From positions 1 to 58,377 of IMG/VR virus record IMGVR_UViG_3300043172_000336: a stretch of DNA of 58,377 nt; one strand, 5' to 3'. This document shows, in pieces, positions 2,010-53,154 of this stretch. Positions within the stretch are counted from its first letter, which is position 1. Each line of letters starts with the position of its first letter. This DNA comes from a virus. Lineage: Duplodnaviria > Caudoviricetes. The notes under the pieces were generated by a model. It ran no database searches. It was not told the DNA's origin and was given only the letters and a program-made list of their open reading frames with translations. Both the position numbers and the translations under genes were made by a program.

Positions 2010-2040
2010 AAAAGAAAACGATCCCGAAGGATCGCTTTCT
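2010..2040 (-). terminator. intrinsic terminator
   Basis: Minus strand AGAAAGCGATCC-TTCG-GGATCGTTTTCTTTT: C(UUCG)G tetraloop plus U-tract, downstream of 2089-2703(-). Confidence 0.85.
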
Positions 2041-2908: not shown

Positions 2909-3283
2909 ATGAAATACACCCGCCTTTTTTATCCAGAGTACCCCCTGGACTTGCTCGACAATAATAAAGTCCGCATCCTGGACCGGATATTGGGGGGTAA
3001 TCGCCGCAGGAGAAGCCGCGAATACAATTCCGCCTGGGGGATTGCAGAGTCGATCAAATTAGAAGGGTTGCACAACCCACTTACAATAGAGTGGTTTTCG
3101 GTTTATCCCAACGAACCCCCCACCTGGAGTGTCCGCGACGGCAACAATCGGTGGCTCGCACTGACCCACTTTCTGAAGCGCGAGACGGCACCGTGTCTTT
3201 TTTTCGTTCTTGCCGATCGAGAACCTCCGCCGGGCGAGTATAAAAATCTGGGGGGTTGCAACGAGATAAAAGATGTGCGATAA
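2909..3283 (+). CDS. stand-alone ParB/sulfiredoxin-like N-terminal domain protein
   Basis: AESIKLEGLHNPLTI ... VRDGNNRWLAL matches the ParB/Srx pattern SI..GL..P ... DGxxR. Confidence 0.7.
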   Translation: MKYTRLFYPEYPLDLLDNNKVRILDRILGGNRRRRSREYNSAWGIAESIKLEGLHNPLTIEWFSVYPNEPPTWSVRDGNNRWLALTHFLKRETAPCLFFVLADREPPPGEYKNLGGCNEIKDVR

Positions 3284-3290
3284 AGGCACC
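3256..3290 (+). promoter_or_regulatory. putative promoter containing 25-bp direct repeat copy 2 (3266-3290)
   Basis: TTGCAA-17 bp-GATAAA; identical 25-mer to 2879-2903. Confidence 0.6.
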
Positions 3291-3314
3291 ATGTGTTTTA
3301 TAGGAGAACCAGGA

Positions 3315-3605
3315 ATGACCGACGGAATCGTACAAGATGGAGGCCACAGCAGCCAGCCGGTTGGGTATGCACAAGATAAACCCGCGATGGATTGGGGTCA
3401 GGCACTCAACCGATTGCAAAATGGGCTGTCAGTATTCCGCACCGGCTGGAACGGCGCGAATCAGTTCCTCACACTTCAGCGTCCCGACGAAAATTCAAAA
3501 ATGACGCTCCCGTACATTTACATTACGACGGTCCAAGGTGACCTGGTGCCCTGGTTGGCATCGCAGACCGATCAGCTCGCAATGGACTGGTGGGTGCGCC
3601 CATGA
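3315..3605 (+). CDS. DUF2829 / Thoeris anti-defence Tad2-family protein
   Basis: MDWGQAL..L..G..V.R.GWNG ... PYIYI ... VPWLASQTDQLAMDW family signature; AGGAG RBS before ATG 3315. Confidence 0.8.
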   Translation: MTDGIVQDGGHSSQPVGYAQDKPAMDWGQALNRLQNGLSVFRTGWNGANQFLTLQRPDENSKMTLPYIYITTVQGDLVPWLASQTDQLAMDWWVRP

Positions 3606-3877
3606 TCGATCCAATTCAATGGCAGGCGATTGCGTGGATTGGCGCGTTTTTACTCGCGCTCTGTGGGGTACCGCAAGCGGCGATGTGTTGGAAGAACGGA
3701 AACGCCAGGGGCATGGACCCGTATTTTCTCGCGATGTGGTTGATGGGCGAGCTTTTAATGTTTGCATATGTCGTCCAAATGGGTGACTGGCCGTTAATGG
3801 CAAATTACGGACTTAATCTTGTTGTCTTGCTGGTAATATGGCGGTATAAACTCTGGCCCCGTAAATACCGACATTAA
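3602..3877 (+). CDS. PQ-loop (SemiSWEET-like) three-helix membrane protein
   Basis: WIGAFLLALCGVPQA...G.S-like loop, three hydrophobic segments, LMANY motif; ATGA overlap. Confidence 0.75.
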   Translation: MIDPIQWQAIAWIGAFLLALCGVPQAAMCWKNGNARGMDPYFLAMWLMGELLMFAYVVQMGDWPLMANYGLNLVVLLVIWRYKLWPRKYRH

Positions 3878-3888
3878 AGGCGACGACG

Positions 3889-4107
3889 ATGAAAATTTTA
3901 CTCCTAGTATTGCTTGCAGTAACCACCCCCGACTTGGCTTATTTGACCGGCCATTTTTACGCGACAAACGGGCAATCGAAATATTGCATTTATTCACAGA
4001 CGGGCAAAGTCCGTATCTACGTAAGAACGGTGGATATGGGCATTGCGTGCCCTGAAACGACCATACTTACTGGCGCTGAGAAGTGGCGCAAAATCAACTA
4101 TACTTAG
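3889..4107 (+). CDS. small putative exported protein
   Basis: MKILLLVLLAV signal-like N-terminus, two Cys. Confidence 0.6.
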   Translation: MKILLLVLLAVTTPDLAYLTGHFYATNGQSKYCIYSQTGKVRIYVRTVDMGIACPETTILTGAEKWRKINYT

Positions 4108-4130
4108 TACCTGAAAAAGGATGACGAATC

Positions 4131-4562
4131 ATGAAAAAGTATTTCCTAGCGGCCATTATTGTGTTTTTCATTGCCGGGTGTAGCACCCTCGGCGCACTTG
4201 GCGATTGGGCCAACGAAAACCCCGCAGTTGCAGACCTGGTCGTGAGCCAGGCGATACATCGGTACATTGACGACGATGTGTTCAAAGCGGCGCGAGTTGT
4301 TGCGTCGATTTCGGCAACAGAGAGATACCTGGAGGGGACCCCTACCGCGACCGTCGATGCACTGCTTCAAGTTCTAAACGCATCGATCGAGTGGGAACAC
4401 TTATCAACTGCCGACCGGATGCTTGTCCGGGACCTGATCGGAGTCGTGCAGATAAACCTCGCACAAAAGCAGGTAGACGGCGAACTTGACCCGGACGAAC
4501 TCATTGGCGTTAAGTCGCTGTTGAGAACTGCGCGTCGGGCGGCTGAGGCATATGCTACTTAA
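4131..4562 (+). CDS. putative lipoprotein
   Basis: MKK-hydrophobic stretch-IAGC lipobox. Confidence 0.8.
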   Translation: MKKYFLAAIIVFFIAGCSTLGALGDWANENPAVADLVVSQAIHRYIDDDVFKAARVVASISATERYLEGTPTATVDALLQVLNASIEWEHLSTADRMLVRDLIGVVQINLAQKQVDGELDPDELIGVKSLLRTARRAAEAYAT

Positions 4563-5010
4563 AGACCCGGCATTCAAAGTCGCCGGGCGAGGTAAATGGC
4601 TCGTCAGCGACCCCATGTTGGTTATATGGAAGCTCTGGCGCGTTACCGTACCGGTGGGGTTCATAACCGACTTTGCAAGCATCCCCCGAATTGGGCGATC
4701 AATTATCCAGAAAGATGGACCCCACCGCCTTCCTGCATTGCTCCACGATTATCTCTATAAACACGCCGGTCGAATTCCCGGTCTCTACTTTGAGCCGAAC
4801 GTGGCATTTCCTAAGAACAAGAAACACAGACATATGGTTACGGTTGACTACACCAGGAAGGATGCAGATGAAGCCTTCCGTGATTTTTTGATCCAGTCCG
4901 CAACAAATAAAACCGTCCGAATCATACTCTATCGATTCGTTCGTATGTTCGGGCAAATGTCGTGGCGAAAACACTGCCGCGCCAAAAAACGCGAGGAAAA
5001 GAATGCCTAG
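4552..5010 (+). CDS. DUF1353 family protein
   Basis: VPVGFITDFASIPR ... ALLHDYLY ... RKDADEAF ... YRFVRMFG signature. Confidence 0.85.
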   Translation: MLLKDPAFKVAGRGKWLVSDPMLVIWKLWRVTVPVGFITDFASIPRIGRSIIQKDGPHRLPALLHDYLYKHAGRIPGLYFEPNVAFPKNKKHRHMVTVDYTRKDADEAFRDFLIQSATNKTVRIILYRFVRMFGQMSWRKHCRAKKREEKNA

Positions 5011-5158
5011 ACAATCAATGAACGGCCATCGAATGCATGTGATCCTTACGGGTCCCCAGCACAAGGCCATAACCAGACTTTCGAACAAATCCGGTTTGAC
5101 CACTTCTGAGCTTATGCGACGAGCAGTTGATGCATACCTGGCGTCGGCAAAGAAATGA
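5003..5158 (+). CDS. ribbon-helix-helix (CopG/Arc-like) DNA-binding protein, 51 aa (not in ORF track)
   Basis: MPRQSMNGHRMHVILTGPQHKAITRLSNKSGLTTSELMRRAVDAYLASAKK; GAGG RBS; ATGA overlap with the next gene. Confidence 0.8.
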   Translation: MPRQSMNGHRMHVILTGPQHKAITRLSNKSGLTTSELMRRAVDAYLASAKK

Positions 5159-5367
5159 AAAAATACATCGCCATGTACATGGTTCCGCAGCGCGTAATTA
5201 TCGATGCAGCTGACCTCGCCGATGCGGTTGCCATTGCCAAAGATAGCGGAGAGGCAGGGGATAAGCTCGATGGGTTTTCACCGAAACTTATGACCGTTGA
5301 AAAGCACCCAGACGTAGAGCAATTGTTTATTCCGCCTGATGCGCCTATGCCTCCGATGGCCGCATAA
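5155..5367 (+). CDS. hypothetical protein
   Basis: 70 aa, coupled to the RHH gene by ATGA. Confidence 0.65.
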   Translation: MKKYIAMYMVPQRVIIDAADLADAVAIAKDSGEAGDKLDGFSPKLMTVEKHPDVEQLFIPPDAPMPPMAA

Positions 5368-5389
5368 AAAAGCCCCAGCGAACTGGGGC
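5366..5389 (-). terminator. intrinsic terminator on the strand opposite the flanking genes
   Basis: Minus strand GCCCCAG-TTCG-CTGGGGC-TTTTTT. Confidence 0.8.
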
Positions 5390-5421
5390 GAGGCAGGCGG
5401 GAGACGACGGCCAAAAGTAAT
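5366..5421 (-). ncRNA. predicted ~56-nt small RNA
   Basis: Lies between a minus-strand promoter (5428-5456) and a minus-strand intrinsic terminator (5366-5389); no start codon inside. Confidence 0.55.
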
Positions 5422-5427
5422 GCGATC

Positions 5428-5456
5428 AGTATAGTAAAGGACAGGGCGGAGATCAA
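5428..5456 (-). promoter_or_regulatory. putative sigma70 promoter
   Basis: Minus strand TTGATC-17 bp-TATACT. Confidence 0.65.
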
Positions 5457-6173
5457 ATGACGAATATTGTTTGCTGGAAATGGGACGACCCCGGCTATGT
5501 ACGCGGGGACAAGCTCCTACCAGAATATTACAATATCCTTTACGCGATGCTGGAGCGGAATATTACACTCCCGGTCTGGGACCTTATCGTGCCCACTGAC
5601 GACACCACCGGCCTTAACCCAAATATCGTTGCGGTTCCGCAACCTTCTTCACTGTCTATACGATCGCCGCACGGTAATCGCTTCCCGGCCTGCTACCGCC
5701 GTCTATGGAACTTCTCGCGTGACGCGCAATACCTTTTCGGCAACCGATTCCTCTGTATAGATGTGGATGTCATTATTGTTCGCAACATCGACGCTATGCT
5801 CACTCGCCCTGAAAAATTCGTTGGGTGGACTGACCCGGACTTTAAGTGGGAGAAAATCGCGGGCGGTCTGTACTACATGCAGGCGGGCGCACATCCCGAA
5901 GTCTGGGATGACTTTGATCCGAAAACTTCACCGGCCATTGCAAAGGCCGACGGCAGACACGGTTCCGACCAGGGCTGGATCTCCCACAAACTTTATCCGC
6001 CCGATGCATCGTTCGGACGCAAAGACGGAGCCTGGTACGCGAAATGGATTCCACCGGGGCTTAATATAACGCCAGCGGAAGTGAAGATCGTCAGCACTCC
6101 AGGTTCAGAGAAACCGTGGCACGAGTCGCTCCAAACTAAACACCCTTGGATCAAGCAGCACTGGAGGCTCTGA
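5457..6173 (+). CDS. GT-A-fold glycosyltransferase-like protein (paralog of 10230-10943)
   Basis: IVCWKW, CYRRL, DxD motif CIDVDVII, GSDQGWI, KPW. Confidence 0.8.
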   Translation: MTNIVCWKWDDPGYVRGDKLLPEYYNILYAMLERNITLPVWDLIVPTDDTTGLNPNIVAVPQPSSLSIRSPHGNRFPACYRRLWNFSRDAQYLFGNRFLCIDVDVIIVRNIDAMLTRPEKFVGWTDPDFKWEKIAGGLYYMQAGAHPEVWDDFDPKTSPAIAKADGRHGSDQGWISHKLYPPDASFGRKDGAWYAKWIPPGLNITPAEVKIVSTPGSEKPWHESLQTKHPWIKQHWRL

Positions 6174-6892
6174 TGGACGACGTTACTATTATCGTGCCGT
6201 ACTACCGAAACCCTCTGATGCTGGAGCAGCATGTTCGGTCCTGGGATCTGTTCCCATACAACTTCAAATTTATCGTCGTTGACGACGGCAGCCCTGAACC
6301 AGTAGAGTCGATTCCTAACTCACGGATTAAAGTTCTTCGCATAGAAGAAGACATCCCGTGGAACCGAGCTGGCGCTCGTAACCTTGGCGCACATGTTGCA
6401 GACACCGATTGGATAATCCACATGGATATCGATCATTTTATGCCGCTCAACACAGCCGTCGCCCTGGCCCAATTCACTGCGCTCTCGGACCACTGGTATC
6501 GGTTCGCCAGGTACCGGTTCGGCGCGGCGGATGCTACGCGCAAGAAAGATGATCTCCCTGACGACGTGATGTTTGGCAAGGTCAAGCCCCACATGGACTC
6601 CTACATGGTTGAGCGGAGTATGTATTGGGCGCTCGGTGGGTACGACGAGGACTACTCAGGCTCTCTGGGCGGCGGTGTGCCGTTCGTTAAGGAGCTGGAG
6701 AAGGCAGGCATCCGGCAGGACCTGGACGACCCCTACTACCTGTATGTGTACACTACGGACGCCATATCGGATGCTTCTGACTCATCGCTGAGTCGGGACA
6801 AGGCACGGTATAGCGAGATCCGCAAATCCAAGGCTGATGGAAAAGTACCTAAAAAGGAGCCGTTGCAATTCAAATGGAAGACCGTAGATTAA
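6173..6892 (+). CDS. GT2-like glycosyltransferase with GT7-C-type C-terminal motif
   Basis: IIVPYY, IVVDDGS, GARNLGA, MDIDH, GGYDEDY; start 6173 (GGAGG RBS, TGATG). Confidence 0.85.
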   Translation: MDDVTIIVPYYRNPLMLEQHVRSWDLFPYNFKFIVVDDGSPEPVESIPNSRIKVLRIEEDIPWNRAGARNLGAHVADTDWIIHMDIDHFMPLNTAVALAQFTALSDHWYRFARYRFGAADATRKKDDLPDDVMFGKVKPHMDSYMVERSMYWALGGYDEDYSGSLGGGVPFVKELEKAGIRQDLDDPYYLYVYTTDAISDASDSSLSRDKARYSEIRKSKADGKVPKKEPLQFKWKTVD

Positions 6893-8181
6893 CAACCTAT
6901 CCCAAAGTTTGGGATGAAGCGGAGACACTCAACCGGCTAATGCGGGGCGCTTCGCTTGCTCGCTTTGGTGACGGCGAGATCAAGCTCATGCTCGGCGGCG
7001 ACCAACTGCGTGAGCCAAAGAACAAGAGGCTCCAGGCTGAACTTCTCGCGGCGCTGAATATCAAACTTCCGAATTACATTATTGGTATCCCAACCATGAA
7101 CCCGGAGGGGTTGAAGTATGTCTTCTGGCATAAGTTCGAAGCACGGATTTTGAGTATTTTGAAGAAGCGCCCGGAATACCATTCTGCGTTTATTACTCGT
7201 CCTGACAGCGCCCCCTGGATAATGAATCGCACGTTTGTCGAGTGCTTTCGATCACTGTGGTTTAATAAAAGGGTTACACTCGTTGCAGAAGACAGCAAAG
7301 TAAAAATTCATAAGGTGATCCATGACTATGCTAAAAAACTTACTCTTGTACGCTGTCCGCATGATGAAGCGCACGCCTCCATTGATGTACTCGAAGATCG
7401 AGTTGTGGCTTCTGATCCTGAGATCGCAATTTTATCCGCCGGTCCTACTGCTACTTGTCTTGTTCCTCGTCTTGTTAGGCGTGGCATTCAGGCAATAGAT
7501 GTAGGGAGCATCGGCGGGCTGCTGCTTACTGTGTTCCCATTAAAAGATGTCGAAGTCTATGGTGAGGTCCAGACACTTGATCTTGTATTAGCCGGAGCCA
7601 GCATCGCCCGCTTCGGTGACGGCGAACTTAAGATCCTGCGAGGCCACGACATCGACTGCCAGCCGTGCCACAAACATTTACGCGGTGCGTTCCAGAAGAT
7701 CATCCTTAACCAGAACCCTGAGATCCTTGTCGGTATTCCACGCCCTGATAAGCTCAGCCCGAAGTACGAGAAGTGGATGGGTTTCATGGCCCACTACGAA
7801 GGGTGGCTCAGCCGGAAGCGTCCGTACGGATCTGCGTTTATTACTCGGGCTGATAGTGCCCCCTGGATCGATACCCCGGAGTACTGGGCCAAGCTGAAGC
7901 AGCTTTGGGAAGGGAAGCATGTTTGCCTGGTCTGGGGTGGAGAGACAGCTTCACTGGTCCCCGCTAAAGTGCGGGGTACAAAACAACTCGATAAGATTAA
8001 GTCGCGCCCCAATAATGCGTGGAAAGACAAAGATAATATCCTCAACCAGATTCGAAAGTTGCAGCCTCAACCGGAGGTCGTCCTCCTCTGCCTGGGGCCG
8101 ACAGCAACTGCACTCGTCCCGGACATCGCTGCCATGGGCATCCAGGCAGTTGACCTCGGCCACGTCGGGAGATGGATGTGA
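6874..8181 (+). CDS. tandem GT-D-fold (DUF1792) glycosyltransferase
   Basis: Two internal copies of S[LI]ARFGDGE ... SAFITR.DSAPWI ... GPTAT.LVP ... GIQA[IV]D[VL]G. Confidence 0.85.
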   Translation: MEDRRLTTYPKVWDEAETLNRLMRGASLARFGDGEIKLMLGGDQLREPKNKRLQAELLAALNIKLPNYIIGIPTMNPEGLKYVFWHKFEARILSILKKRPEYHSAFITRPDSAPWIMNRTFVECFRSLWFNKRVTLVAEDSKVKIHKVIHDYAKKLTLVRCPHDEAHASIDVLEDRVVASDPEIAILSAGPTATCLVPRLVRRGIQAIDVGSIGGLLLTVFPLKDVEVYGEVQTLDLVLAGASIARFGDGELKILRGHDIDCQPCHKHLRGAFQKIILNQNPEILVGIPRPDKLSPKYEKWMGFMAHYEGWLSRKRPYGSAFITRADSAPWIDTPEYWAKLKQLWEGKHVCLVWGGETASLVPAKVRGTKQLDKIKSRPNNAWKDKDNILNQIRKLQPQPEVVLLCLGPTATALVPDIAAMGIQAVDLGHVGRWM

Positions 8182-8354
8182 TCGCTGCCTTCAAAGGTGT
8201 GCCCGAAGCTGAGCGCCTGGTCGAGGCCGTTCGGAATTATAAAGGGGGTGATGACCACGAAAGAAGGTTTTTACGCGGCGTGGTTACCTTCTATAAAGCC
8301 CGCCAGCAGCGACCGCAGGTGGTGAGATTTCTGGAGTATGTGCTGTATGGATAA
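8172..8354 (+). CDS. small hypothetical protein inside the glycosyltransferase cluster
   Basis: 60 aa, overlaps both neighbours, GGGAG RBS. Confidence 0.55.
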   Translation: MDVIAAFKGVPEAERLVEAVRNYKGGDDHERRFLRGVVTFYKARQQRPQVVRFLEYVLYG

Positions 8355-9060
8355 TATTCAGCTCATCTATCCGTACTACGACAACCCCGGCATGTTCTAT
8401 GAACAGCAGTCCGTTTGGGCTGAGTGGGACCGCGAGCTTAAAGCTAAAGTCAAGATCATCATGGTCGATGACAGTAGCCCTAACGACGCCGCTGAAAAAT
8501 ATTACTGCTCCGTCCCCGGCCTGGACTTTGAACTATACCGGGTGCATAAAAATATCCCCTGGAATCAGAACGGCGCTCATAATCTCGCCATGCACGTAGC
8601 TGATGACGGCTGGTGTTTGATGACGGACATCGATCATGTGCTGTCGAACGAGAACCTGGCGAGGCTGTTAGCCATCGAGCCAGATGAAGGCATGTACTAC
8701 ACTCTTGGGCGGCGTCAGTTCGGCCATCTACGTGTGCCTTATAAACGGCACCCCAATTCCTGGCTCCTGACGAGGGAGATGTTTTTGACGAGCGGCGGGT
8801 ACGACGAAGACTTCTCTGGATACTACGGCTCCGACAGTGTTTTCAAAGTCGCGCTTTCTCATGTAGGAACGCACATCAAACTCGAACTGCCATATCTTAT
8901 TGTATATAACGAGGACGACATTCCAGATGCAAACACGCGAGAGTTCGAGCGTAAGCATTCGAAGTACTGGAGTTTGAATCACCCTCACCTGTTAGCAAAA
9001 CGCCGCCACTGGCGGATCGCCTTAAACCCCATTCGATTTCCCTGGGAGCGCATACTATGA
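8347..9060 (+). CDS. GT2-like glycosyltransferase with GT7-C-type motif (paralog of 6173-6892)
   Basis: LIYPYY, MVDDSS, IPWNQNGAHNLA, TDIDH, GGYDEDFSGYYGSD. Confidence 0.85.
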   Translation: MDNIQLIYPYYDNPGMFYEQQSVWAEWDRELKAKVKIIMVDDSSPNDAAEKYYCSVPGLDFELYRVHKNIPWNQNGAHNLAMHVADDGWCLMTDIDHVLSNENLARLLAIEPDEGMYYTLGRRQFGHLRVPYKRHPNSWLLTREMFLTSGGYDEDFSGYYGSDSVFKVALSHVGTHIKLELPYLIVYNEDDIPDANTREFERKHSKYWSLNHPHLLAKRRHWRIALNPIRFPWERIL

Positions 9061-9704
9061 AACTCAGTCACGGCTGGTACCACCACGATGTGATGAAAGG
9101 TCTCGGAACGTACATCCGTCGCTCGGGGGTTATTGACGCTGCTATGAAATATCTACCTCCTGAGCGCCGCCGCACAGTCCTCCAGGCAGGAGCGCACCAA
9201 GGAGTCTGGCCTGTCACTCTTGCGAAACTTTTTGAGCATGTGTTCGCGTGGGAGCCAATGCCAAGTAACTGGGAGTGCCTCGTCAAGAACACTGAAAAGA
9301 TCGACAACATTACGATTACGCTGGGCTGCCTCGGTGAGGAAGTAGGTGAAGTAATGCTTGAGGATAAGTCCAATAAAAATACGGGCGCATCTTTTATTAA
9401 CCCCAGGATAGGCACGCAGAGTGCGAAGCAGTTTCGTCTTGACGACTACAATTTCCCTACTCCTGTGGATGCGCTGTTCCTCGATGTTGAAGGGTACGAG
9501 CTTAAGATTTTATTGGGCGGCCACATCCTCATACACAACGACCGACCGGCACTGATTGTTGTCGAGGAAAACGGCTTACAGAAACGTCGATTCAGAATGC
9601 CTGAAAAGGCACTCGGTAAGTACCTGGAAACTTTTGGGTACCAGGCCGTGGAACGCTGGGAAGAAGATGTGATTTATATTCTGGAGGACAATCATTATGA
9701 TTGA
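9057..9704 (+). CDS. FkbM-family SAM-dependent methyltransferase
   Basis: QAGAHQG, VFAWEP, RLDD, LDVEGYE..IL.G. Confidence 0.85.
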   Translation: MKLSHGWYHHDVMKGLGTYIRRSGVIDAAMKYLPPERRRTVLQAGAHQGVWPVTLAKLFEHVFAWEPMPSNWECLVKNTEKIDNITITLGCLGEEVGEVMLEDKSNKNTGASFINPRIGTQSAKQFRLDDYNFPTPVDALFLDVEGYELKILLGGHILIHNDRPALIVVEENGLQKRRFRMPEKALGKYLETFGYQAVERWEEDVIYILEDNHYD

Positions 9705-10233
9705 TGCAGTAGAGGAGGGGTATCTTATTTCCCCGGAACACAAGGCGCGGTACGTCGAGTACTACGCCGACCGTCCCTTCAAAGATCGACCTCATAAATG
9801 GCAGGAGAAGGTCGAAGCGATTGCGAAGAAGATCGAGGCGAAGTCAGTCCTCGATTACGGGTGCGGCGTAACTCAGGCTTTGTCTCGTTGGTCGTCCCTG
9901 CCTGTGACGGACTATGACCCCGTCATTCCCCACCTGGACTGCCCTAACTTTAATCACAAGTTCGATCTGGTTGTCTGCAATCATGTCTTAGAACATGTCG
10001 AACCTGAGCGGCTCCACGATATCCTAGCGCATATAAAGAGCCTGACTGGTAAGGTCGTCTACATCGCGCTCTCCACTAAGCTGTCTACAAAGAAGCTCCC
10101 TGACGGTACTGAGTGGCATCTGCTTGTCCACAATAAAAAATGGTGGAACCAGCAGTTCAAGAAACACTTCCGAGCCTTCCACATCTTCGAGTCAGATGAG
10201 CGGACCTTTGAAATAATATGGGTGAGAAAATGA
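9697..10233 (+). CDS. class I SAM-dependent methyltransferase
   Basis: VLDYGCG, YDP, FDLVVCNHVLEHV. Confidence 0.85.
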   Translation: MIDAVEEGYLISPEHKARYVEYYADRPFKDRPHKWQEKVEAIAKKIEAKSVLDYGCGVTQALSRWSSLPVTDYDPVIPHLDCPNFNHKFDLVVCNHVLEHVEPERLHDILAHIKSLTGKVVYIALSTKLSTKKLPDGTEWHLLVHNKKWWNQQFKKHFRAFHIFESDERTFEIIWVRK

Positions 10234-10943
10234 TTAGAGTAGTATGTTGGTTATGGCCTCCAATGCGAAAATACCGAACGACGTTCACGTATGAACACGT
10301 CAACATCTTTCGCAACATGGTGGAGCGCCACCTGCACATGGAACACGAGGTTGTATGCATTACGAATATGGCAGATCGTATTGATCCTCGTGTCCGTATT
10401 GTTCCGCTGTGGGATGACTATGCTGATGTTGCTTCTCCTCATGGTGGTTTTTCTCCAGCGTGCTACCGAAGACTTAGAGCATTTTCCTCCGAGATGGAGA
10501 ATGTAATTGGCCCGCGTTTTGTTTCGATGGATCTCGATGTCGTCATTGTTGACGATATAACCCCCCTGCTGGACAGGGAAGATGACTTCGTTATTTGGGG
10601 GTCAGTGTTACGGGACACGCCATATAATGGCTCGATGTGGATGATGGACGCAGGCGCTCGCGAAGTGGTCTGGACTGATTTCAATCCGAGTATTTCGCCC
10701 ACACTGACGAGGAAAGCTGGCCTCCACGGATCTGACCAGGCGTGGATGAGCTACCGTCTCGGGGCACTTGAGAAGCGGTGGACACCTAAAGGTGACGGCG
10801 TGTATGCTTTCAGGTCGGATCTAAAACGTCGCCGGTATACGTTACCTGACGACACTAAGATTGTTTTCTTCCAGGGTGCCAACGACCCATGGGATGAATT
10901 TTCACGCAGGGTCGCGCCGTGGATCATGGAGCATTATAAATGA
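10230..10943 (+). CDS. GT-A-fold glycosyltransferase-like protein (paralog of 5457-6173)
   Basis: VVCWLW, CYRRL, MDLDVVI, YNGSM, GSDQAWM, IVFFQG..DPW; ATGA overlaps on both sides. Confidence 0.8.
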   Translation: MIRVVCWLWPPMRKYRTTFTYEHVNIFRNMVERHLHMEHEVVCITNMADRIDPRVRIVPLWDDYADVASPHGGFSPACYRRLRAFSSEMENVIGPRFVSMDLDVVIVDDITPLLDREDDFVIWGSVLRDTPYNGSMWMMDAGAREVVWTDFNPSISPTLTRKAGLHGSDQAWMSYRLGALEKRWTPKGDGVYAFRSDLKRRRYTLPDDTKIVFFQGANDPWDEFSRRVAPWIMEHYK

Positions 10944-12343
10944 GCGCATTGGTTAATTTCCGAACTCCCCCAACTGTTGGGAAGTTCATGCTCGATGACC
11001 ACTTCACTCGTCTCATCATGGGGCCGGTGGGGTCGGGCAAGTCAGCTGGATGCTTCATGGAACTACTGCGCCGGGCGCGACTGCAAGAACCAGACGGAGA
11101 AGGTGTACGCCGAACTCGCTTTGCGATCGTTCGAAATACTTTGCAACAGCTACGACAAACCTGCCTCGCGGATATCCAGCTGTGGCTGTCATCGGTGTGC
11201 AGCTATCGAGTTACTGACGCAACTGTACAAGTTCGCCTGGATCTAAAAGACGGCACCCGAGTCGAGTCTGACTGGATGCTGATCCCGCTCGATACAAAGG
11301 CTGATCAACAGCGCCTCCTGTCTCTCAACTTGACTGGTGCATGGGTGTCAGAGTTTCGTGAGATCGAACCCAGCCTCATCGATGCACTGTCAGGCCGCCT
11401 CGGTCGTTTCCCATCGAAGGCAATCGCTGAGCCTACCTGGTTCGGCATCATCGCTGAGTCAAATCCCCCTGACGAAGACTCAGTTTGGTACACCAAGATG
11501 GAAGTGGACCTACCTCCTAACTGGGTGCTGTTCAAGCAGCCCGGCGGACTAACCGAATTCGCGGAGAACGTCGATAACCTACCGAAGAATTATTACCAGA
11601 ACCTGGCCGACAATAACAACGCTGACTGGGTCGATATCCATGTTCACGCCAAGTACGGCAAGAGCCTCTCTGGTCAAGCTGTCTTTCGGTCCAGCTTCCG
11701 CCCCGGCTTTCATGTGGTCAAGGACCTGGAGCCGATCCCCGGTATGCCAATTATGATTGGGCAGGACTTTGGGCGAACCCCTGCTTCCCTGATGGGTCAG
11801 ATCGACAACCGTGGCCGACTCTGCATTTTTCACGAGTGTACATCTGAAGACATGGGTATCGAGCAGTTCTGCACAGCCAAACTCCGACCAATGATGTTTG
11901 AAAATTACGCCGGTAAAGAATCATTCATGATCGGTGATCCGTCGGGAAAATTCAAAGGTCAGATTACGGAGGAGTCTCCGTTCGATGCACTCAAGCGATT
12001 AGGGTTTAAGATTTACGCAGCGCCGACCAACGATGTGGAGCCACGACTGCGAGCTGTTGAACAACTCTTTCTGCACCAGGTTGATGGAGGACCGATGCTG
12101 CTCATCCACAGCGAGAACTGTCCTCTGTTGATTCAGGCGTTAAAGTTTTGGTATCGCTACCGCCGTAAAACTACAGGTATGTTAGAGGACCGTCCCGAGA
12201 AGACTCACCCTTGGTCTGATCTTGCTGATTGCCTTCAGTACATGTGCCTTGCCGTGAATGGCAATTACATCGGGAATATGATTGCTCGTCAGCGGCCACG
12301 GAAGAACAAGAAGCCTGCGATGACCTCCGCCGCCTGGAACTAA
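10940..12343 (+). CDS. terL: terminase large subunit
   Basis: Walker A GPVGSGKS, RFAIVRNT, ESNPP, nuclease motifs GQDFG, GDPSG, SDLADCLQY. Confidence 0.92.
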   Translation: MSALVNFRTPPTVGKFMLDDHFTRLIMGPVGSGKSAGCFMELLRRARLQEPDGEGVRRTRFAIVRNTLQQLRQTCLADIQLWLSSVCSYRVTDATVQVRLDLKDGTRVESDWMLIPLDTKADQQRLLSLNLTGAWVSEFREIEPSLIDALSGRLGRFPSKAIAEPTWFGIIAESNPPDEDSVWYTKMEVDLPPNWVLFKQPGGLTEFAENVDNLPKNYYQNLADNNNADWVDIHVHAKYGKSLSGQAVFRSSFRPGFHVVKDLEPIPGMPIMIGQDFGRTPASLMGQIDNRGRLCIFHECTSEDMGIEQFCTAKLRPMMFENYAGKESFMIGDPSGKFKGQITEESPFDALKRLGFKIYAAPTNDVEPRLRAVEQLFLHQVDGGPMLLIHSENCPLLIQALKFWYRYRRKTTGMLEDRPEKTHPWSDLADCLQYMCLAVNGNYIGNMIARQRPRKNKKPAMTSAAWN

Positions 12344-12816
12344 GCTGCTTCCGGTAACGCAGTAGCTTCGATTGCCACCGTGCGAATCTCTTTCTCTCCG
12401 GTATCGATGTGAATGTTGATGGTAGCTGCGTTTGCTCCAAGTCCTGCGTTTGCTGCATCCCGCTGGTTACGACCAGCCAGGACCGCCATCTGCTTAATAC
12501 TGTCGATGCGTTGCTGCGATGGTTTCTCGATGTCATGAGCAATCTCGTATAAAATGTGAATGGAATCTTCGAGGATAAGTTCGGCTTTCTTTGTGATTCG
12601 CTTCCCCGAGTTTAGGTCCCCGTGCCAGTCTCTTAGCGCCTCCTTTAGCATGTTGCGGAAGACCCGACTGATTTTGAGGGTTTCCCACTGGTCCTGGGAG
12701 ATCTCGTACTTTTCTCTGATGCCCTCCGCATCGGCAAGCCCAGCGGCTAATTCAGCGCATATGGTCGCGCTCAGATTGTGGATACCCAGGGGCTTAATGG
12801 TTGCTATTTCATTCAT
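12340..12816 (-). CDS. hypothetical protein, candidate small terminase subunit
   Basis: 158 aa with N-terminal HTH-like segment, helical middle and C-terminal strand (ATINIHID); lies between terL and portal. Confidence 0.55.
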   Translation of the reverse strand: MNEIATIKPLGIHNLSATICAELAAGLADAEGIREKYEISQDQWETLKISRVFRNMLKEALRDWHGDLNSGKRITKKAELILEDSIHILYEIAHDIEKPSQQRIDSIKQMAVLAGRNQRDAANAGLGANAATINIHIDTGEKEIRTVAIEATALPEAA

Positions 12817-12829
12817 ATTCTTTCGCCAG

Positions 12830-12859
12830 TTGACAACCCCTATAGCATACTCGCAAAAT
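12830..12859 (+). promoter_or_regulatory. putative promoter for the portal/head operon
   Basis: TTGACA-18 bp-CAAAAT in the short divergent intergenic gap. Confidence 0.45.
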
Positions 12860-14999: not shown

Positions 15000-15001
15000 T
15001 C

Positions 15002-15316
15002 ATGAAACCCCGAACACACAAGTATGCAAATCAAGGTCCCCAGCTGATGAAAGATGGCGGGCGTGCTGGTAAGCAAACCAAACAACCCCCGAAGGATGAG
15101 AAAGGCCAGGGGACGAAACCAAAGGAAGGCGGCGAAGGACTGATGTCCAGATGGAAAGGCCGCTCGGCAAAAGCGTTGGAAGAAATGGGTATGGCTGATG
15201 GAGGCCGTGTTATGAAGAAGCCAGAGAAGGGTAAGAAACCAGTACGGATCACGACGAAGAACCCACCGGGGGGACCACAAACCCCAGGGGCTAAGAAGAA
15301 AAAGAAGAAGAAGTAG
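15002..15316 (+). CDS. small Lys/Gly-rich basic protein
   Basis: Follows the portal stop; MKDGG and MADGG motifs; poly-Lys C-terminus. Confidence 0.65.
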   Translation: MKPRTHKYANQGPQLMKDGGRAGKQTKQPPKDEKGQGTKPKEGGEGLMSRWKGRSAKALEEMGMADGGRVMKKPEKGKKPVRITTKNPPGGPQTPGAKKKKKKK

Positions 15317-15381
15317 CATTTATTAGCGAAAGTGGTAAGATTCAACAGACTTTACAGCATATGTTACCAGGAGAAATGGTC

Positions 15382-15675
15382 ATGGATGTAAGCGGAAACG
15401 GTGGTGGTGGCGAAGGCCATTCCCCATATGGGAAGCAAAGTGAGTTCCTTGGCGATACCAAAGGTAACCGTGATCTCGAAACGGATCGCACGCACCCGAG
15501 CGGTGGAACCGGCGAACCTCACGCGGCGTTCTCGAAGCAGAGCGAGTTCCTTGGTGACACCAAGGGCAACAGTGATCTGGCAACAGATCGTTCAAGCGGT
15601 GTTCCTTCTGGTTTCGGTGGCGGTCGGCATAAAGCTGGCGGCAGCGGTAAAGACCAGAGCGGACCGGGGCAGTAA
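15382..15675 (+). CDS. Gly/Ser-rich protein with an internal duplication
   Basis: AGGAG RBS 8 nt before ATG 15382; KQSEFLGDTKGNxDLxTDR occurs twice. Confidence 0.7.
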   Translation: MDVSGNGGGGEGHSPYGKQSEFLGDTKGNRDLETDRTHPSGGTGEPHAAFSKQSEFLGDTKGNSDLATDRSSGVPSGFGGGRHKAGGSGKDQSGPGQ

Positions 15676-18283: not shown

Positions 18284-18327
18284 CCTCCAGGGGGTATAAT
18301 ATTTTTATACCCTCTGGGGGGTTTCTT
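18284..18327 (+). terminator. intrinsic terminator after the capsid gene
   Basis: CCTCCAGGGGGTATAA / TTATACCCTCTGGGGG 16-bp stem with G-U pairs, then GTTTCTT. Confidence 0.75.
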
Positions 18328-34085: not shown

Positions 34086-36148
34086 TGGCTTACGACGCAG
34101 CAAAATATGACATAGCCGGTAGCTTCTCACGGGGTCGTGAAGGCACACTGAAAGCTAAGCGTGCCCGGCAGCGGATTAAATCTGCTGATATAAAGATTAA
34201 GAACGAGTCGGATTCTTTGGAGTCTCGCCGCCGCACTCAGCAGCGAGACAGAGGCCGTAGCGGGATGCCTCCGCTGGAGTTTGAGAACTACGACACAGAC
34301 ATGCGAGGGCCAGTCAAACGGACTCTGGACTGGATCAAGGAGCGGTCGGCAAATAAAATTAGCCCTGATGCACCAGGCGAAGCTAATTCGACGCAGTATG
34401 CGGAGGAGTATAAGTTAGGCACTCGATATCAGATGGCCCAGACTGCGGCAAAGTCCAAAGAAGCGCAGATGCAGGGGCAAGAAGATGAGATGCTTGCCGA
34501 ACGTTATGCCACGGAAGAGTTTGAACAAGCCGAGATCCCGCAGTACGCGAATGGTGGTCGAGCTATCCCCTCAACTTCACCCAGCGTGAACAGCTACGCT
34601 GACGGTGGAGCGGTAGATGATGGCGGGCAACCAGTGCAGCATGAGGAGCATCGCCCAGGGGTGTTTACTGTTGGCGCTCAACGTGACGCCCCTCTTAATA
34701 GTGTCGTCCCGCAGATGGCTGACGGTGGGATACTGCAGATGGCTGGCGGTGGCGTGGTCGCATCAGAGAGAACACTCTCAGCAGCAGAACGACTCAACCA
34801 GTATGAAAAGGCCAAGAACGCTCCGAGGCCGAGCCAGGCTTTAAGCCCTCAACAGAATCTCGAAGCTCGTGGTGGCGTGCGCGGAAATGTATCGAAGGGC
34901 CGGGGCTTTCTGAACTCACGAGCAGCTCGCATACCTACTTCGGCAATAGGAAGGGGCCTGCGTCATGGCGCTCGTTTCGGCGTCGGTGCCCTTGCCTATG
35001 GCGCTGCTGAGACTGCTGTAGAGTCATACGGCACTGGCACTGATGAGTACCGTGAACGATATGGAATTCCAGAGTCACCGAACGATGGGTGGCGTCGTAC
35101 TGTTGACGATCTCGCTGTCCGTGGCAAAGGGTTCCTGGAAGACTTCGGTAATAAAATAACAGGTGGCGTGGCCGGTGACATCGGATCAGGCATGAACGCC
35201 CCCGACACTGCTATACCTCCTGAACTCCCATCGTCTGTACCACCGGTCAGCGAGGATGAAAAAGTCGGGCAGGACGCAAAGGGTGACGCCGAGCGTATGG
35301 CCGCTGAAGCGGAAGCTGCTAACAAGCCGCCGGGCGAGATTGATTTCTCGAAGGTTGACTTTAAGTCAGGTGACTTCCCCTCTATGACAGTTAAGGATTG
35401 GACTGCGTACCGCTATGCCACAGTTGCTGATCTTGTTGGTATGGGTGTCGGCTATGAAGACGCGCATGACCAGGTATCGAATACGCAGCAGAAGGAATTC
35501 CTTAACTACCTGAAGCAGGGACAGATGCATCTCGAAGTAGGTAATGCTCCCGCCGCTGCCGGTGCCCTACGTATGGCGTTCCAGCATTTCCCCAATGGTT
35601 CTGATGTAAAAATTGGAGTCCACCAAGACCCGAACACGGGCCAGCCTATTCTTCTGGGTATGGGTATGAATGATGAGACAGGTGAACCCGTCGGTCAGCC
35701 ACAATTTATGGATGCTCAGAAGCTCGGCATGATGATCGATAACTTTGGTAACCCTGCCTCGTTCCGTATGTGGACGAAGGATCGTGACGACAATACCTTC
35801 CGCGATAAAGGGCAGAAGATTGAGCAGCAGAGGGCTGATCAAATGGGGCGGTACCAGGAGAAAATGGGTACAGCTGCCCTTGGTCGAGCGTCAGCCGCGA
35901 TACAAGCCGCTGCGAATTCACTCGATGGTATTGAGGATGTCGCAGAGGCCACGAAACGAATTCGTGAAGAACTTTCAATCTCTGGTATTGAATATGATGA
36001 CCAGGTCAAGTTGCTGAGTATAATGGGTCAGATTAAACAGAACGACCCCGGTCTGATCTACCCTGAAATCTACCAACTGGTAGTAAGTCAGTACAAAGCT
36101 GACCCTGAACAACTTGATGAGATGCTTGATTCAATTGGGATACGCTAA
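34085..36148 (+). CDS. internal virion (ejection) protein
   Basis: 687 aa, TAATG-coupled between two other ejection-type genes. Confidence 0.65.
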   Translation: MAYDAAKYDIAGSFSRGREGTLKAKRARQRIKSADIKIKNESDSLESRRRTQQRDRGRSGMPPLEFENYDTDMRGPVKRTLDWIKERSANKISPDAPGEANSTQYAEEYKLGTRYQMAQTAAKSKEAQMQGQEDEMLAERYATEEFEQAEIPQYANGGRAIPSTSPSVNSYADGGAVDDGGQPVQHEEHRPGVFTVGAQRDAPLNSVVPQMADGGILQMAGGGVVASERTLSAAERLNQYEKAKNAPRPSQALSPQQNLEARGGVRGNVSKGRGFLNSRAARIPTSAIGRGLRHGARFGVGALAYGAAETAVESYGTGTDEYRERYGIPESPNDGWRRTVDDLAVRGKGFLEDFGNKITGGVAGDIGSGMNAPDTAIPPELPSSVPPVSEDEKVGQDAKGDAERMAAEAEAANKPPGEIDFSKVDFKSGDFPSMTVKDWTAYRYATVADLVGMGVGYEDAHDQVSNTQQKEFLNYLKQGQMHLEVGNAPAAAGALRMAFQHFPNGSDVKIGVHQDPNTGQPILLGMGMNDETGEPVGQPQFMDAQKLGMMIDNFGNPASFRMWTKDRDDNTFRDKGQKIEQQRADQMGRYQEKMGTAALGRASAAIQAAANSLDGIEDVAEATKRIREELSISGIEYDDQVKLLSIMGQIKQNDPGLIYPEIYQLVVSQYKADPEQLDEMLDSIGIR

Positions 36149-39100
36149 TGCCCTCCTTCAAAGAGACATTTGGGGAGCCATTAACGTACGATCCGGTTGA
36201 TCCAAACAACGACACTCCACCTTCCCCCCGTCTGAAAGCAAAATCCTTTCGTGAGGTGTTCAGTCCCGGTGCCGATCCCGGTGCCGGTGCCGACCCGCCA
36301 CCCGACACGTTCGGGACTAAGAGTTTCGGGGAAGTTTTTCGTGGCCGGGCACGCCTCAACCCACAGCCTAAAGATGAGCCTAGTTTCGCAGGCGACATCG
36401 CTCGTGACCTCTTCTCCGGTGTAGTGCAGACAGGTGAGCTTGCCCTTGGCGGAATAGAATATGCAGCGCGACAGGCAGCAGGGGAAGAAGGTACCTTCGG
36501 CCAGTACATCATCGGCCAGGCGGTGGACCCACTGTCTGCTGCTCGTCGTGCAACAGGTGAATACGCCCAGCAGATCGTAGGCTCTATGTCACAGGAGTCA
36601 GAAGATCTGATCACTCGTGAGTGGACCACCCTGGACCCGGAGAGATCTGTATGGACTCAGGGGGTCGGTGGTGTCACCAAAGCAGTCCTGCTTAAAATGG
36701 CGCAGGCATTACCAGCCACGATAATCACGATGCTGCCAGCTGTCAGGTTATTCAAAGCCGGTATGACACCTGGTGCTATGGCCTACCTCGGTGCATCAGA
36801 AGGTGCGCTCTCTATGGGCGGCATTGCCGCTGGCCTGGCCCAAGAGATTGAGGGCATGACCCATCAGGAGTTACTGAATGAGTCCCCGGTTTACCAAGAG
36901 TTTATAAGCGGAGGGCTTAGCGAAGATGATGCACGTAGCCAATTGATTACCGCTGCCCAAGGTGCGGCACCGCTGATCGGCGGCATACTTGTAGGGTCTA
37001 TCGCTGCCACCGCTGGTAAATGGCTGGAGCCAATCATCGTCGGAAAGGGAGCGAAACTGGCTGGCCGGTTCGGTCGTGGCACAGCTGTTGAGGCCGCACA
37101 GGAATCCCCTCAGTCGGGTGTTGAACAGTTCATGCAGAACGTTGCCGCCCAGGTCTTCGACGCCGACAGGCAGCTCAGCGAGGGCGTAGCAGAGGCCATG
37201 ATCGAGGGCGGCATCATCGGTGGCTTGACCGGCGGTGTCTTCACGGGCGTGATGGGGGCCAGGCCACAGCAACCGGCTGGGCAGGCCCCTGAACAAGCCC
37301 CGGACCCCACTGAAGACTTCCCGGAGGCTGAACCCACTGACCTTAGTGCGGCCCTGGTTCCAGTAGACCAGCCGCTGGGCCAGATGGACCTTCCACTCAC
37401 ACGTAGGGAACGTGGATTTCCACGCGCCCCTATCCCCCCTGGTCAGCAGCCTGGACCTGACCCAACGGACTACAGTCCTGACCTGGGTCCACTTGGCGGT
37501 GCCCAGGACAAACTGTTCGGCACCCAGCCTAGTGGTGCCCAAGATCCCCGACAAGGTGACCTGTTCGACCCGGTAGCAGCTGGCGACACCACTGCGGAAC
37601 CTCTGAGGGACATCGAGGCCCAGATCCTGGAGATGCAACGCCCGGAGAGCGGCAAGGACGCCGTGTTCTTATCCTCTGCGAGCATTGAACATCTTCAGAG
37701 GTCTGGTGACCTCGAAGCGTTTTTGGATAGCGGTGTAGCCCTCACCAATTTCGATGGGGCGGGCGGTGTACTGTTAGCAAAGGACAGACAGGCAGCGGTG
37801 GGGTTCACTGAAGATCGGAATACCGGTGGTGATGTGGAGCGGATCATTGGCCTTGCTACTGGAGATGGTGTTGGGAAACCCATGTCACGGGTAGGCTCCG
37901 CGTTTGCAACCACGGTTGTACAACGCCGTGACGAAGCTGGGAACATTGTTCAGGAACGAGTCGTCGCCGACGAGGAGGAGGCTCTCCTTATTGAAGCTCA
38001 GTGGGAGCAGAAGTATCCCAACTTTGACATTATGATCAGGACCGCCGACGCCGTGCAGATGCGCCGGGCCGAGCGCGTACAACACGAAGATGCACAGGCT
38101 CAGGCCGTGGTTGCTGAGCAAGAATTGCAACGGCAGCTTGCGGAGGAGCGGGCCGACACTGAGCAAGAGTTCGATGTCGCTACCAGATTCCTTGACGAGG
38201 ATACCCGTACCCGAACAGCCGGTGCCCAGACTCCTACCCGAGCCGCTGCCCGACTGGTCGGCGAGGCCACTCGTCAGTCAGGTGAGCGACAGCGTATCGG
38301 TGGGTTCTACCCGCCCGAGGTTCTGGAATTCCAAAGCCCGACCGCTGGAAAGAATTACGACAAAGCGTTTACCGAACTGGTGGACCAAGAGATTACTATC
38401 AAGCAGGAAGAACTTGCTCGGGAAGACTGGCCCCGTGGTGTGCGCCCCAAACATTTGAAGGGTGGCACCGGCCAGGTTACGAAGCGTCTCTCCAAAGCTG
38501 GAGACAAAGCACGCAGTCGTCGGACTGCCCTGCTCCATGAGCTGGGTAAGATCCGTGCGAAGGCCAAGCCTATACGTAGGAAAGCAGCAAACATTATTGA
38601 GGCTGCTCGGGAGCTGTCACCTGAAACTGTTGAAGGCGCAGCCCGTGGTACTCCAGCTACGAAAGAACGTGAGGATACACCGGCAGCGGCAGCGATTCCT
38701 AACACGCAAATGCTGGGGAATCTAACTGACTCAAAAATAGATGTGCTTACCGGTGCAGAGCTTGCGAGAGTTTTCAAGCAGGCTGCCACCTGGATGGCTG
38801 GTCGTTGGATCGCACTACAGTTGGAGTACGAAGGCGGTCCGAAAACTCTGGAAAATATTCCCGAAGGTGCCGAGCTGCTGGCGATCAGTGTCCCCGTGAT
38901 GAAGACCAAGCAAGAGCTTTGGGTAATAGAGAGCGTTAAGAAAGGATCGCCACCGGAAGGCATGAAAGGTCCTTGGGTTGATTACGTGGTACGGCAAGGG
39001 GAGAAAGACCTAACGAAATACGTAAAGGAAGGGATGACAAAAGAAGAAATTAAGGAAGCGACTGCGAGAGATCTAAAGGAAAACACGAGTGTTGGTAAGC

Positions 39101-47295: not shown

Positions 47296-47494
47296 CGCGA
47301 GTGTTACTCTTGGCGTAGCTTCCCCCGTTCGACAGGGCCTTGACGTGATGGACTTCCTTCCCGTCCCCCTTGTGGACGGTGCCTGCCTTCTCCGCTTCGT
47401 GGCGTGATCTGTTCCTTGCCGCCCGATCCTTCTTCGCTTTTGGCCCAGCGTGGTACTTTTGGTAGTAGGCGTCGGTTGATTCTCGGGTCGGCAT
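47234..47494 (-). CDS. HNH endonuclease-like protein
   Basis: KGDGKEVHHVKALSNGGS....NTRV.....NRS; ATG at 47494. Confidence 0.8.
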   Translation of the reverse strand: MPTRESTDAYYQKYHAGPKAKKDRAARNRSRHEAEKAGTVHKGDGKEVHHVKALSNGGSYAKSNTRVTTRKKNRSYKRSAKNKPID

Positions 47495-48361: not shown

Positions 48362-48609
48362 TAGTATACGTCTCCATTGTTTCCTCGTTTGTGTTCTTCA
48401 TAAGGCGCTACCTTTCGGCGGTAGAATTCCTGCTTCGCACACTCCAACACGCCGATGATTTCGTTGAGGAGTTCATAGCTAACATCTTTGTCCTTCAAGT
48501 AGGCAAGGCAAGTCTTCGTGATGATGTAGTTGAGTTCCCCTGCGTCCATGGCAAAGCTGCTCTTGTTTCGGTCCAGTCTCTGTCGTTGTTTCTTTGTTAC
48601 GTATGGCAT
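48361..48609 (-). CDS. phage hypothetical protein
   Basis: MPY...R..LD ... GELNY.IT ... GVLECAKQEFYRR.VAPYE..K...NGDVY; coupled on both sides. Confidence 0.75.
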   Translation of the reverse strand: MPYVTKKQRQRLDRNKSSFAMDAGELNYIITKTCLAYLKDKDVSYELLNEIIGVLECAKQEFYRRKVAPYEEHKRGNNGDVY

Positions 48610-51982: not shown

Positions 51983-51990
51983 AAAACTGG

Positions 51991-52031: not shown

Positions 52032-52036
52032 ATACA

Positions 52037-53152: not shown

Positions 53153-53154
53153 GA

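Follow-up and report, generated by a model that had tools for sequence, protein, structure and literature searches.

Why should a strong transcription terminator point backwards inside a long run of co-oriented phage genes? The question is raised by a stretch of 58,377 bp from a tailed virus (Caudoviricetes; IMG/VR record IMGVR_UViG_3300043172_000336; CheckV completeness 93%), hereafter the window, which is distant kin of Rhizobium phage RHph_TM3_14A (48% and 46% amino acid identity in portal and terminase, respectively). Its genes run leftward at 1–2902 and 47304–58377 and rightward at 2909–47295, save for 12340–12816, and the forward block 2909–12343 has one sizeable gap only, the 89 bp at 5368–5456. 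An earlier, model-made reading of this DNA (the sequence-only reading) had placed a self-contained small RNA (sRNA) gene here on the minus strand, at the entrance to a glycosylation operon. To our knowledge, few phage regulatory RNAs are known, nearly all of them from cultured model phages. The element is real and conserved, and the locus is best read as a new family of phage cis-antisense sRNAs of the kind represented by sar of phage P22 and OOP of phage lambda, whose copy in the window has lost direct contact with its ancestral target. Specifically, we consider it likely, if well short of certain, that 5456–5366 (minus strand) is a self-contained, sar/OOP-like antisense sRNA gene of a family that is absent from Rfam and resides in uncultivated phages.

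A putative backward-facing transcription unit in the window

The elements that had been described—both hexamers, A5421, the 32-nucleotide (nt) stretch, the hairpin and the T6—are all present on the minus strand:

5451–5456, minus strand: −35-like hexamer TTGATC, overlapping on the DNA the spacer between the Shine–Dalgarno (SD) sequence and the ATG of the first glycosyltransferase gene
5428–5433, minus strand: −10-like hexamer TATACT, overlapping a plus-strand TATAGT at 5430–5435
5390–5421, minus strand: predicted 5′ body of the sRNA, 32 nt, with the conserved core GGCCGTCGTCT at 5412–5402 and a C/U-rich anti-SD stretch
5372–5389, minus strand: terminator hairpin GCCCCAG-TTCG-CTGGGGC, with a 7-bp stem (6 G–C pairs) and a 4-nt loop
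5366–5371, minus strand: T6 (U-tract), whose complement is the TAA stop and A-run of the upstream plus-strand gene

The accompanying statement that the flanking genes lie on the plus strand holds from 2909 to 12343, where plus-strand open reading frames (ORFs) take all PHROG and Pfam matches and none of the five minus-strand shadow ORFs has any.

Under strict criteria (≥7 bp of unbroken stem with ≥5 G–C pairs, a loop of 3–8 nt, ≥6 T within 1 nt), the hairpin and T6 at 5389–5366 are the only intrinsic terminator on either strand of the whole 58-kb window. In 200 dinucleotide shuffles the mean number of such terminators was 0.015, with any at all in 1 of the 200. No T-run adjoins the hairpin on the plus side, and the hairpin is the only repeat found in the 5368–5456 gap. 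Upstream of it on the minus strand, TTGATC (5456–5451), a 17-nt spacer and TATACT (5433–5428) form a promoter-like site with a 9/12 match, in which 38 nt separate the −10 hexamer from the stem; promoter-like sites with a −10 ending 10–60 nt upstream are expected at 1.5% of minus-strand positions. On the evidence of the window by itself, there is a real terminator in an odd orientation and a promoter that is no more than plausible.

If the site acts as a sigma-70-type promoter, transcription would start near A5421, a +1 predicted from the position of the −10 hexamer only, and the hairpin and U6 would end the RNA about 56 nt further on. In the predicted fold of this 56-nt RNA (−19 kcal/mol, z = −2.94), the 5′ part stays open and the terminator follows it. 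Rfam, which the sequence-only reading had named as a check, returned no family: across the whole window none of 4227 models reached its gathering threshold, and the best sub-threshold match in 5250–5550 (RF02278, 18.8 bits against 50) is carried by the terminator. Among strain DNA compared with 4700–6300, one 92%-identical contig crosses the unit without insertions or deletions, another has such changes at 5390 and 5395, within the variable linker of the 5′ body, and mosaic junctions lie at ~5299 and ~5341.

A protein gene on the minus strand was considered and rejected. The 114-amino-acid ORF at 5112–5456 has no family, contains the terminator and shares third codon positions with the plus-strand gene, and the minus-strand ORFs that arise in relatives from a palindromic CATG are 18–76 amino acids long and not conserved.

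Recurrence of the unit in related loci

Relatives comprised 47 viral contigs recovered with the terminase protein (57–81% identity), all of them uncultivated; their loci are denoted here by L numbers. Phages of this group are present in marine sediment and other marine samples. A blastn comparison of 5300–5520 with the 47 loci matched only 5349–5415, in more than 12 loci and in constant orientation. At E ≤ 1e-3 the non-coding island 5350–5424 is the most widely conserved nucleotide stretch in 4500–6500, matching 7 loci, as against 3 for the upstream ribbon–helix–helix (RHH) gene and 2 for the first glycosyltransferase gene. Beyond these loci, blastn of 4500–6500 against cultured phages gave no match, and the first glycosyltransferase and the DUF1353 protein found matches of 32% identity or none among viral, metagenome and genome contigs.

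A covariance model (R1) built from 17 copies recognizes 20 full-length copies at 32–81 bits, one in the window and the others in 19 of the 47 loci, and the conservation in relatives that the sequence-only reading had also named as a check is thereby borne out. One further full copy (67 bits) occurs in L057, a contig found by a pattern scan of viral contigs. The cultured relative with the best terminase identity, RHph_TM3_14A (46%; locus L006), has partial matches only, at ≤13.3 bits. An exact search for the hairpin found one unrelated contig (L004), where it is an ordinary sense terminator and therefore a convergent sequence.

All 20 full-length copies are antisense to the terminase gene, and the units of the 19 relatives are opposite to all neighbouring genes. 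The predicted unit lies between two modules, that of the RHH gene and that of terminase, and in every case reads against its neighbours. Its order on the minus strand is that of a promoter-like site, a 5′ body, a GC stem of 6–9 bp and T5–T7; within the 5′ body the core GGCCGTCGTCT is nearly invariant, and the C/U-rich linker differs in length from copy to copy. The T5–T7 follows the stem in 20 of 20 aligned copies (in one with a single A between), and on the plus strand an A-run of 5–7 A's precedes the stem in all 17 copies listed. From these elements we infer a family of primary transcripts of ~52–72 nt.

The RHH gene stands downstream of the terminase gene, on the opposite strand, in L039, L043, L045, L047 and L048; the RHH module therefore moves as a unit. 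In L039 the module has its orientation reversed with respect to terminase and carries along a weaker copy of the RNA unit (22.7 bits), again antisense to the genes on the RHH side.

Stem covariation and the strand of the RNA

The aligned stem retains pairing while its letters change. Paired cells make up 95.5% of the stem alignment compared with 78.9% after shuffling, and cells with a double change number 21 compared with 5.4, values that 0 of 500 shuffles reached in either case, in statistics that ignore phylogeny. Compensatory changes occur at 4 of the 7 stem pairs, and the signal collapses when the partners are slid by 1–3 columns.

The same stems indicate which strand is the RNA. Folds of the minus-strand RNA contain 11 G·U pairs and those of the plus-strand RNA none, each G·U on the minus strand being a C·A mismatch in the forward RNA. 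Of the 20 copies, 13 fold more stably as the minus-strand RNA and 6 as the plus-strand RNA, with the pair L007 and L010 at −21.6 (minus) against −13.0 kcal/mol (plus); in the window the two strands are equal (−14.4). Throughout the family the T-run is on the minus side only. On the minus strand, then, the element is an intrinsic terminator in both its parts, a hairpin and a U-tract, and its structure is conserved on that strand.

Promoter-like sites in unrelated flanks

A strict promoter-like site with a −10 ending 25–60 nt upstream of the stem occurs in 12 of the 20 copies but at only 1.2% of background positions; with the match relaxed to at least 8/12, the proportions are 15 of 20 and 4.9%. 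Across the family these sites lie 33–51 nt from the stem. The flanks in which they occur are in part unrelated: those of the window, L008, L022, L023, L040 and L007 are mutually unalignable (z < 2.7), whereas those of the loci that carry a small ORF next to the unit (the small-ORF group, below) align among themselves (z ~5). Strict sites are found in four mutually unalignable flank types (the window, L023/L024, L040 and the small-ORF group), and L008 and L022, also with unalignable flanks, have promoter-like sites at the 8/12 level only. TATACT itself stands at an equal distance from the stem in L022, L040 and L007, whose flanks do not align with that of the window. With strict sites in 4 of ~8 independent flank types, a number that reflects our own grouping, the binomial probability is of order 1e-6 at 1.2% each.

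In the small-ORF group the predicted promoter lies within a coding region, and its −35 and −10 hexamers fall on synonymous sites that are fixed in 6 of 6 members (Val-Val as GTT GTA; Ile as ATA), while neighbouring Gly and Pro third positions vary. For comparison, ATA makes up 17% of the 826 Ile codons in the window.

A probable ancestral target and its displacement

In ten relatives (L008, L014, L015, L017, L019, L020, L033, L034, L037 and L053) the start of a small ORF follows directly after the core. The forward strand there reads hairpin, SD-like stretch, complement of the core, and the ATG of an ORF of 63–79 amino acids; the predicted RNA would therefore cover the SD sequence, the start codon and the first codons, with its promoter inside the ORF. 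Complementarity between the RNA and this initiation region is perfect in most family members. The anti-SD-like UCUCCC that the sequence-only reading had pointed out in the 5′ part is present, and it is simply the complement of the SD leader of the small ORF. The ORF adjoins the terminase gene or is separated from it by a glycosyl/methyltransferase cassette. It matches no Pfam or PHROG family and is predicted to fold as a three-helix bundle (pLDDT 89.3), for which a Foldseek search of the PDB gave no neighbour (best E 4.4). As the product is a charged three-helix protein and not a hydrophobic peptide, we rejected a type I toxin–antitoxin pair.

By this arrangement the RNA would pair with the initiation region of the small ORF, much as sar of P22 does with its target, and would block translation or destabilize the mRNA; the terminase message behind the small ORF might be lowered too. 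Strong forward (late) transcription through the antisense promoter would override the RNA.

In the window this contact is broken by an insertion of 2.7 kb between the unit and its target, which contains three glycosyltransferase genes:

5457–6173, 6146–6892 and 6874–8181, plus strand: three glycosyltransferase genes, inserted between the unit and its ancestral target (Pfam/PHROG matches, synteny)
8172–8354, plus strand: displaced homologue of the small ORF (tblastn with the small ORF of L053, E 1.8e-7; alignment)

At the old junction the ATG has been lost, with GGCC and then AAAAG in place of ATGAAAG. The link to a glycosylation operon, which the sequence-only reading had made central, is accordingly secondary, the glycosyltransferase genes having come in between the unit and its ancestral target. 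Other cassettes are inserted likewise in L022 and L023/L024, with the small ORF further downstream, and probably in L040 and L007/L010, where the small ORF was not found. The core is retained in the window, L022, L023/L024 and L040 although the small ORF does not directly follow. In L003, the homologue of the glycosyltransferase abuts its upstream gene with no gap.

Because the cassette has separated the RNA gene from its target, the present role of the copy in the window is uncertain. Its RNA would end 36 nt before the start of the first glycosyltransferase gene, with the SD sequence outside it, so that the overlap with a target's initiation region that is typical of sar is not found here; the only partner in cis is an untranslated stretch 36–91 nt upstream of that start. 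The copy may serve duplex-dependent processing of the forward mRNA, may cause promoter interference over the glycosyltransferase start, or may be an orphan that recent ancestry has preserved.

The glycosyl/methyltransferase cassette (5457–10943 in the window, compared with L007–L053) varies among relatives in content and in insertion point, being found on one or the other side of the small ORF, toward the sRNA unit or toward the terminase gene. This variation suggests a recombination hot spot.

Alternative explanations

Several observations weigh against an antisense sRNA gene. Ten related loci span the interval and yet have no unit, since the genes abut there, and the unit is therefore dispensable; in the other loci without it, the interval is not covered or the RHH gene is elsewhere. 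Taken alone, the promoter in the window is at chance level (18 sites with a 9/12 match compared with 16.9 ± 3.9 in shuffled sequence, over 20 kb), and 8 of the 20 copies have no strict promoter, among them L053, L019, L035 and L027, which have weaker hexamers only. The distance window of 25–60 nt was set after the data were seen. The rule by which 17 of the 20 aligned copies were picked demanded a perfect stem of ≥6 bp as well as an A-run, and the stem alignment was fitted to the model; selection and fit both lean toward structure. The RNA of the window covers no ribosome-binding site, and a search of RNA sequencing runs turned up none that contains this DNA. Lastly, as the core lies between the SD sequence and the ATG of the small ORF, the leader could explain part of its conservation.

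The terminator is the best-supported part of the unit, and it might act alone as an antisense insulator, stopping long leftward transcripts (from 12340–12816 or from spurious antisense promoters) and shielding the RHH module, with no dedicated sRNA and with the promoters incidental. A real, conserved minus-strand gene does lie to the right with no strong terminator found downstream of it, the eight copies that lack a strict promoter match are in keeping with this explanation, and 9% of the mapped terminators of Pseudomonas phages are antisense to genes according to the excerpted text of PMC10914365. What an insulator leaves unexplained, however, are the promoter-like sites 33–51 nt off in unrelated flanks (12 of 20 against 1.2%), the fixed synonymous sites under the hexamers, and the core that the window has kept after losing the ORF start; moreover, 7 kb separate the terminator from that minus-strand gene, with several weaker hairpin/T-run sites between. 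We regard an insulator without an sRNA as unlikely, while granting it a real chance of being correct; it may also coexist with the sRNA. Very improbable, in our judgement, is a by-product of bidirectional initiation, in which the quasi-symmetric −10 core AGTATAGT would drive both the glycosyltransferase operon and a divergent leftward transcript cut by an old terminator. The plus-strand TATAGT (5430–5435) overlaps the minus-strand TATACT (5433–5428), as a like pair does in L023, and symmetric −10 elements often give divergent transcription in bacteria (bioRxiv 10.1101/2020.01.31.928960, excerpted text). Yet that TATAGT has no usable −35 and is unlisted in the promoter scan, the two starts would be ~21–22 bp apart and outside the favoured spacings that the same excerpts give (18; 29, 23, 12, 10, 7), and the small-ORF group, where the promoter is within a coding region, would go unexplained.

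An element of the plus strand or of the DNA itself, such as an mRNA hairpin (stabilizer or processing site) with a small-ORF leader, or a protein-binding or packaging site, would make the terminator look of the minus strand a side effect of an A-run coming after a stop codon. In relatives the core does have an SD-like stretch before it and the ATG of a plus-strand gene after it, the hairpin folds in the plus-strand RNA too (with equal energy in the window), and the unit adjoins packaging genes. Against this stand the 11 G·U pairs of the minus-strand RNA compared with none in the plus, the A-run kept in 17 of 17 listed copies with no plus-strand T-run after the stem in any of them, the unremarkable fold of 5340–5470 on the plus strand (z = −1.04), and the persistence of the core in the window, L022, L023/L024 and L040 without a small ORF directly after it. 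We give this explanation only a small chance of being right. The self-contained, ~56-nt antisense sRNA gene of the sequence-only reading is therefore the part we retain, with conservation in 19 relatives, a covarying stem, G·U pairs, the U-tract and promoter-like sites in its favour; the in-genome targets and the role proposed with it, the timing of late or glycan genes, we do not.

Comparison with known antisense RNAs

In phage P22, Arc is an RHH protein, and the beginning of ant harbours the promoter Psar; the RNA sar is complementary to the ant ribosome-binding site. As described in the excerpted texts of PMC12197685 and PMC2629481, sar (68/69 nt, immI region) has its own promoter and terminator, is directed against the operon, and pairs with ant mRNA to hinder translation initiation. 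The antisense sRNA gene considered here would resemble it in having its own promoter and terminator against an operon, in the RHH repressor gene upstream on the forward strand, as in immI, and, in most family members, in the complementarity of the RNA to the start codon and ribosome-binding site of the gene that follows. For the promoter the likeness is one of sequence prediction only (the window and 12 of the 20 family copies). Unlike sar, the family has no homology to it in sequence or structure, and its target would be a small three-helix protein before terminase and not an antirepressor; the target start in the window is beyond the reach of the RNA after the 2.7-kb insertion, and the system is known here from its sequence alone.

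Lambda OOP (77 nt) is likewise a backward promoter-to-terminator unit between two genes of a forward operon; its transcription begins at pO and stops at the hairpin tO (PMC5869508 and PMC12197685, excerpted texts). OOP overlaps 52 bases of the cII 3′ end and acts via RNase III cleavage, as the former excerpt has it (PMC5869508). The present unit, unlike OOP, reaches no further into the upstream gene than its stop codon; in relatives it extends over the 5′ end of the next gene, and the unit and OOP share no homology. In virulent Pseudomonas phages, the excerpted text of PMC10914365 reports 20 antisense RNA species with defined starts besides the antisense 9% of mapped terminators; antisense units are therefore normal in phage transcription maps. 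Those cases were mapped at the RNA level in cultured phages, whereas the present family comes from comparative sequence of uncultivated ones and brings conservation and covariation. In a 2025 review of phage small RNAs (PMC12197685) the word "terminase" does not appear, and a literature search over titles and the beginnings of abstracts found no antisense unit of this kind at terminase.

If the reading as an antisense sRNA gene is true, the locus would represent an antisense RNA family of uncultivated marine phages, defined by sequence and backed by structure, situated at the entry to the packaging module and with a clear, testable cis target in most members. Its members and the relatives without a unit would form a natural series, from a covered target through one moved away by a glycosylation cassette to a locus with no unit, with which to ask what such RNAs do and how they survive the loss of their target, and the covariance model could be used to annotate it in viral metagenomes.

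Proposed pairing in trans

The sequence-only reading had also suggested pairing within the genome, with a ribosome-binding region at 53594–53602 (minus strand) and with a stop region near 2089. Both sequences exist, and neither pairing is better than shuffled controls. When the 32-nt body was scanned for duplexes with 68 start regions, the best energy was −29.7, compared with −29.1 ± 2.6 for shuffles, of which 40% of 300 were as good. The start of the displaced small ORF, a pre-specified candidate, gave −27.9, a marginal result that 5% of 2000 shuffles equalled. A GACGAC...ATG box has 3 matches where 2.2 are expected, and for the start region after the helicase gene the duplex p-values in the window and three relatives are 0.28, 0.034, 0.36 and 0.18.

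A wider role can be built on these pairings. A conserved gatekeeper RNA of the packaging module might also act in trans through the invariant core GGCCGUCGUCU. Its targets would be two: the small ORF in its displaced position (8172) and, after the helicase gene, another initiation region, which has the box GGAGACGAC (53594–53602). Besides regulating, the sRNA gene would on this view be a recombination hot spot for cassettes (morons), which appear to have been inserted at it several times independently (window, L022, L023/L024, L040, L007/L010). We judge this extension quite unlikely, and the GGAGACGAC box as a trans target is a lead only.

At that site, 53526–53604 (minus strand), a 21-codon ORF has the strong SD sequence GGAGACGAC and then its ATG at 53591, and its last letters fall on the GTG with which a phrog_13900 gene starts, an arrangement that suggests translational coupling. 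The GGAGACGAC box is also found before the homologous gene in one relative (L061).

Gene neighbourhood and other features of the window

Further genes to either side of the unit are these:

5003–5158, plus strand: RHH (CopG/Arc-type) gene, 51 amino acids, one gene upstream of the unit (Pfam RHH_1, 22.4 bits against a cut-off of 20.5)
5155–5367, plus strand: gene of 70 amino acids directly upstream of the unit, from a divergent small-protein family with an Ala-stop end just before the hairpin in relatives
12340–12816, minus strand: gene of 158 amino acids between terminase and portal (phrog_36773, E 2.4e-10)

Homologues of the RHH gene were found by tblastn in 32 of the 47 related loci. The 70-amino-acid protein matches no Pfam or PHROG family and had zero tblastn matches among the 47 loci, where its kin are recognizable by eye only; in a protein atlas it met just unnamed viral clusters, below a useful score. 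To the right of the gap, a run of glycosyltransferase and methyltransferase genes extends up to the large terminase gene (10940–12343, plus strand), whose stop is overlapped by 4 nt by the minus-strand gene 12340–12816. Homologues of the latter occur in 45 of the 47 loci. No tRNA or tmRNA gene was found in the window.

A 20-bp perfect palindrome, TGTTACACAGCTGTGTAACA, is present in three identical copies (1111–1130, 1952–1971 and 2728–2747) ahead of leftward early genes, where none is expected by chance. The palindromes resemble repressor operators; the RHH protein of 5003–5158 is a possible repressor. Between leftward early genes, at 2014–2039 (minus strand), there is a sense-oriented, terminator-like stem with a T-run, and a sense-oriented 16-bp stem (−26.9 kcal/mol) lies directly past the major capsid gene at 18284–18320 (plus strand).

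The motif TATAGGGGTT occurs on the minus strand at 12835–12844 and 52025–52034, ~20–25 nt before the starts of two minus-strand genes, 12340–12816 and the primase/helicase gene 49178–52000, with similar flanks; it may be a common promoter or leader element. The protein of 2840 amino acids encoded at 36148–44670 has, in its C-terminal third, a match to a DarB-like antirestriction PHROG (E 1.8e-45), and a homologue of a "DNA transfer protein" comes next. The former is probably a large virion protein, either ejected or internal. At 15000–15400, 401 bp have no ORF in the gene list; Lys- and Pro-type codons are frequent there and an AAG/AAA run is followed by a stop, so that this stretch, after the portal gene, is probably a gene for a small basic protein that the list lacks.

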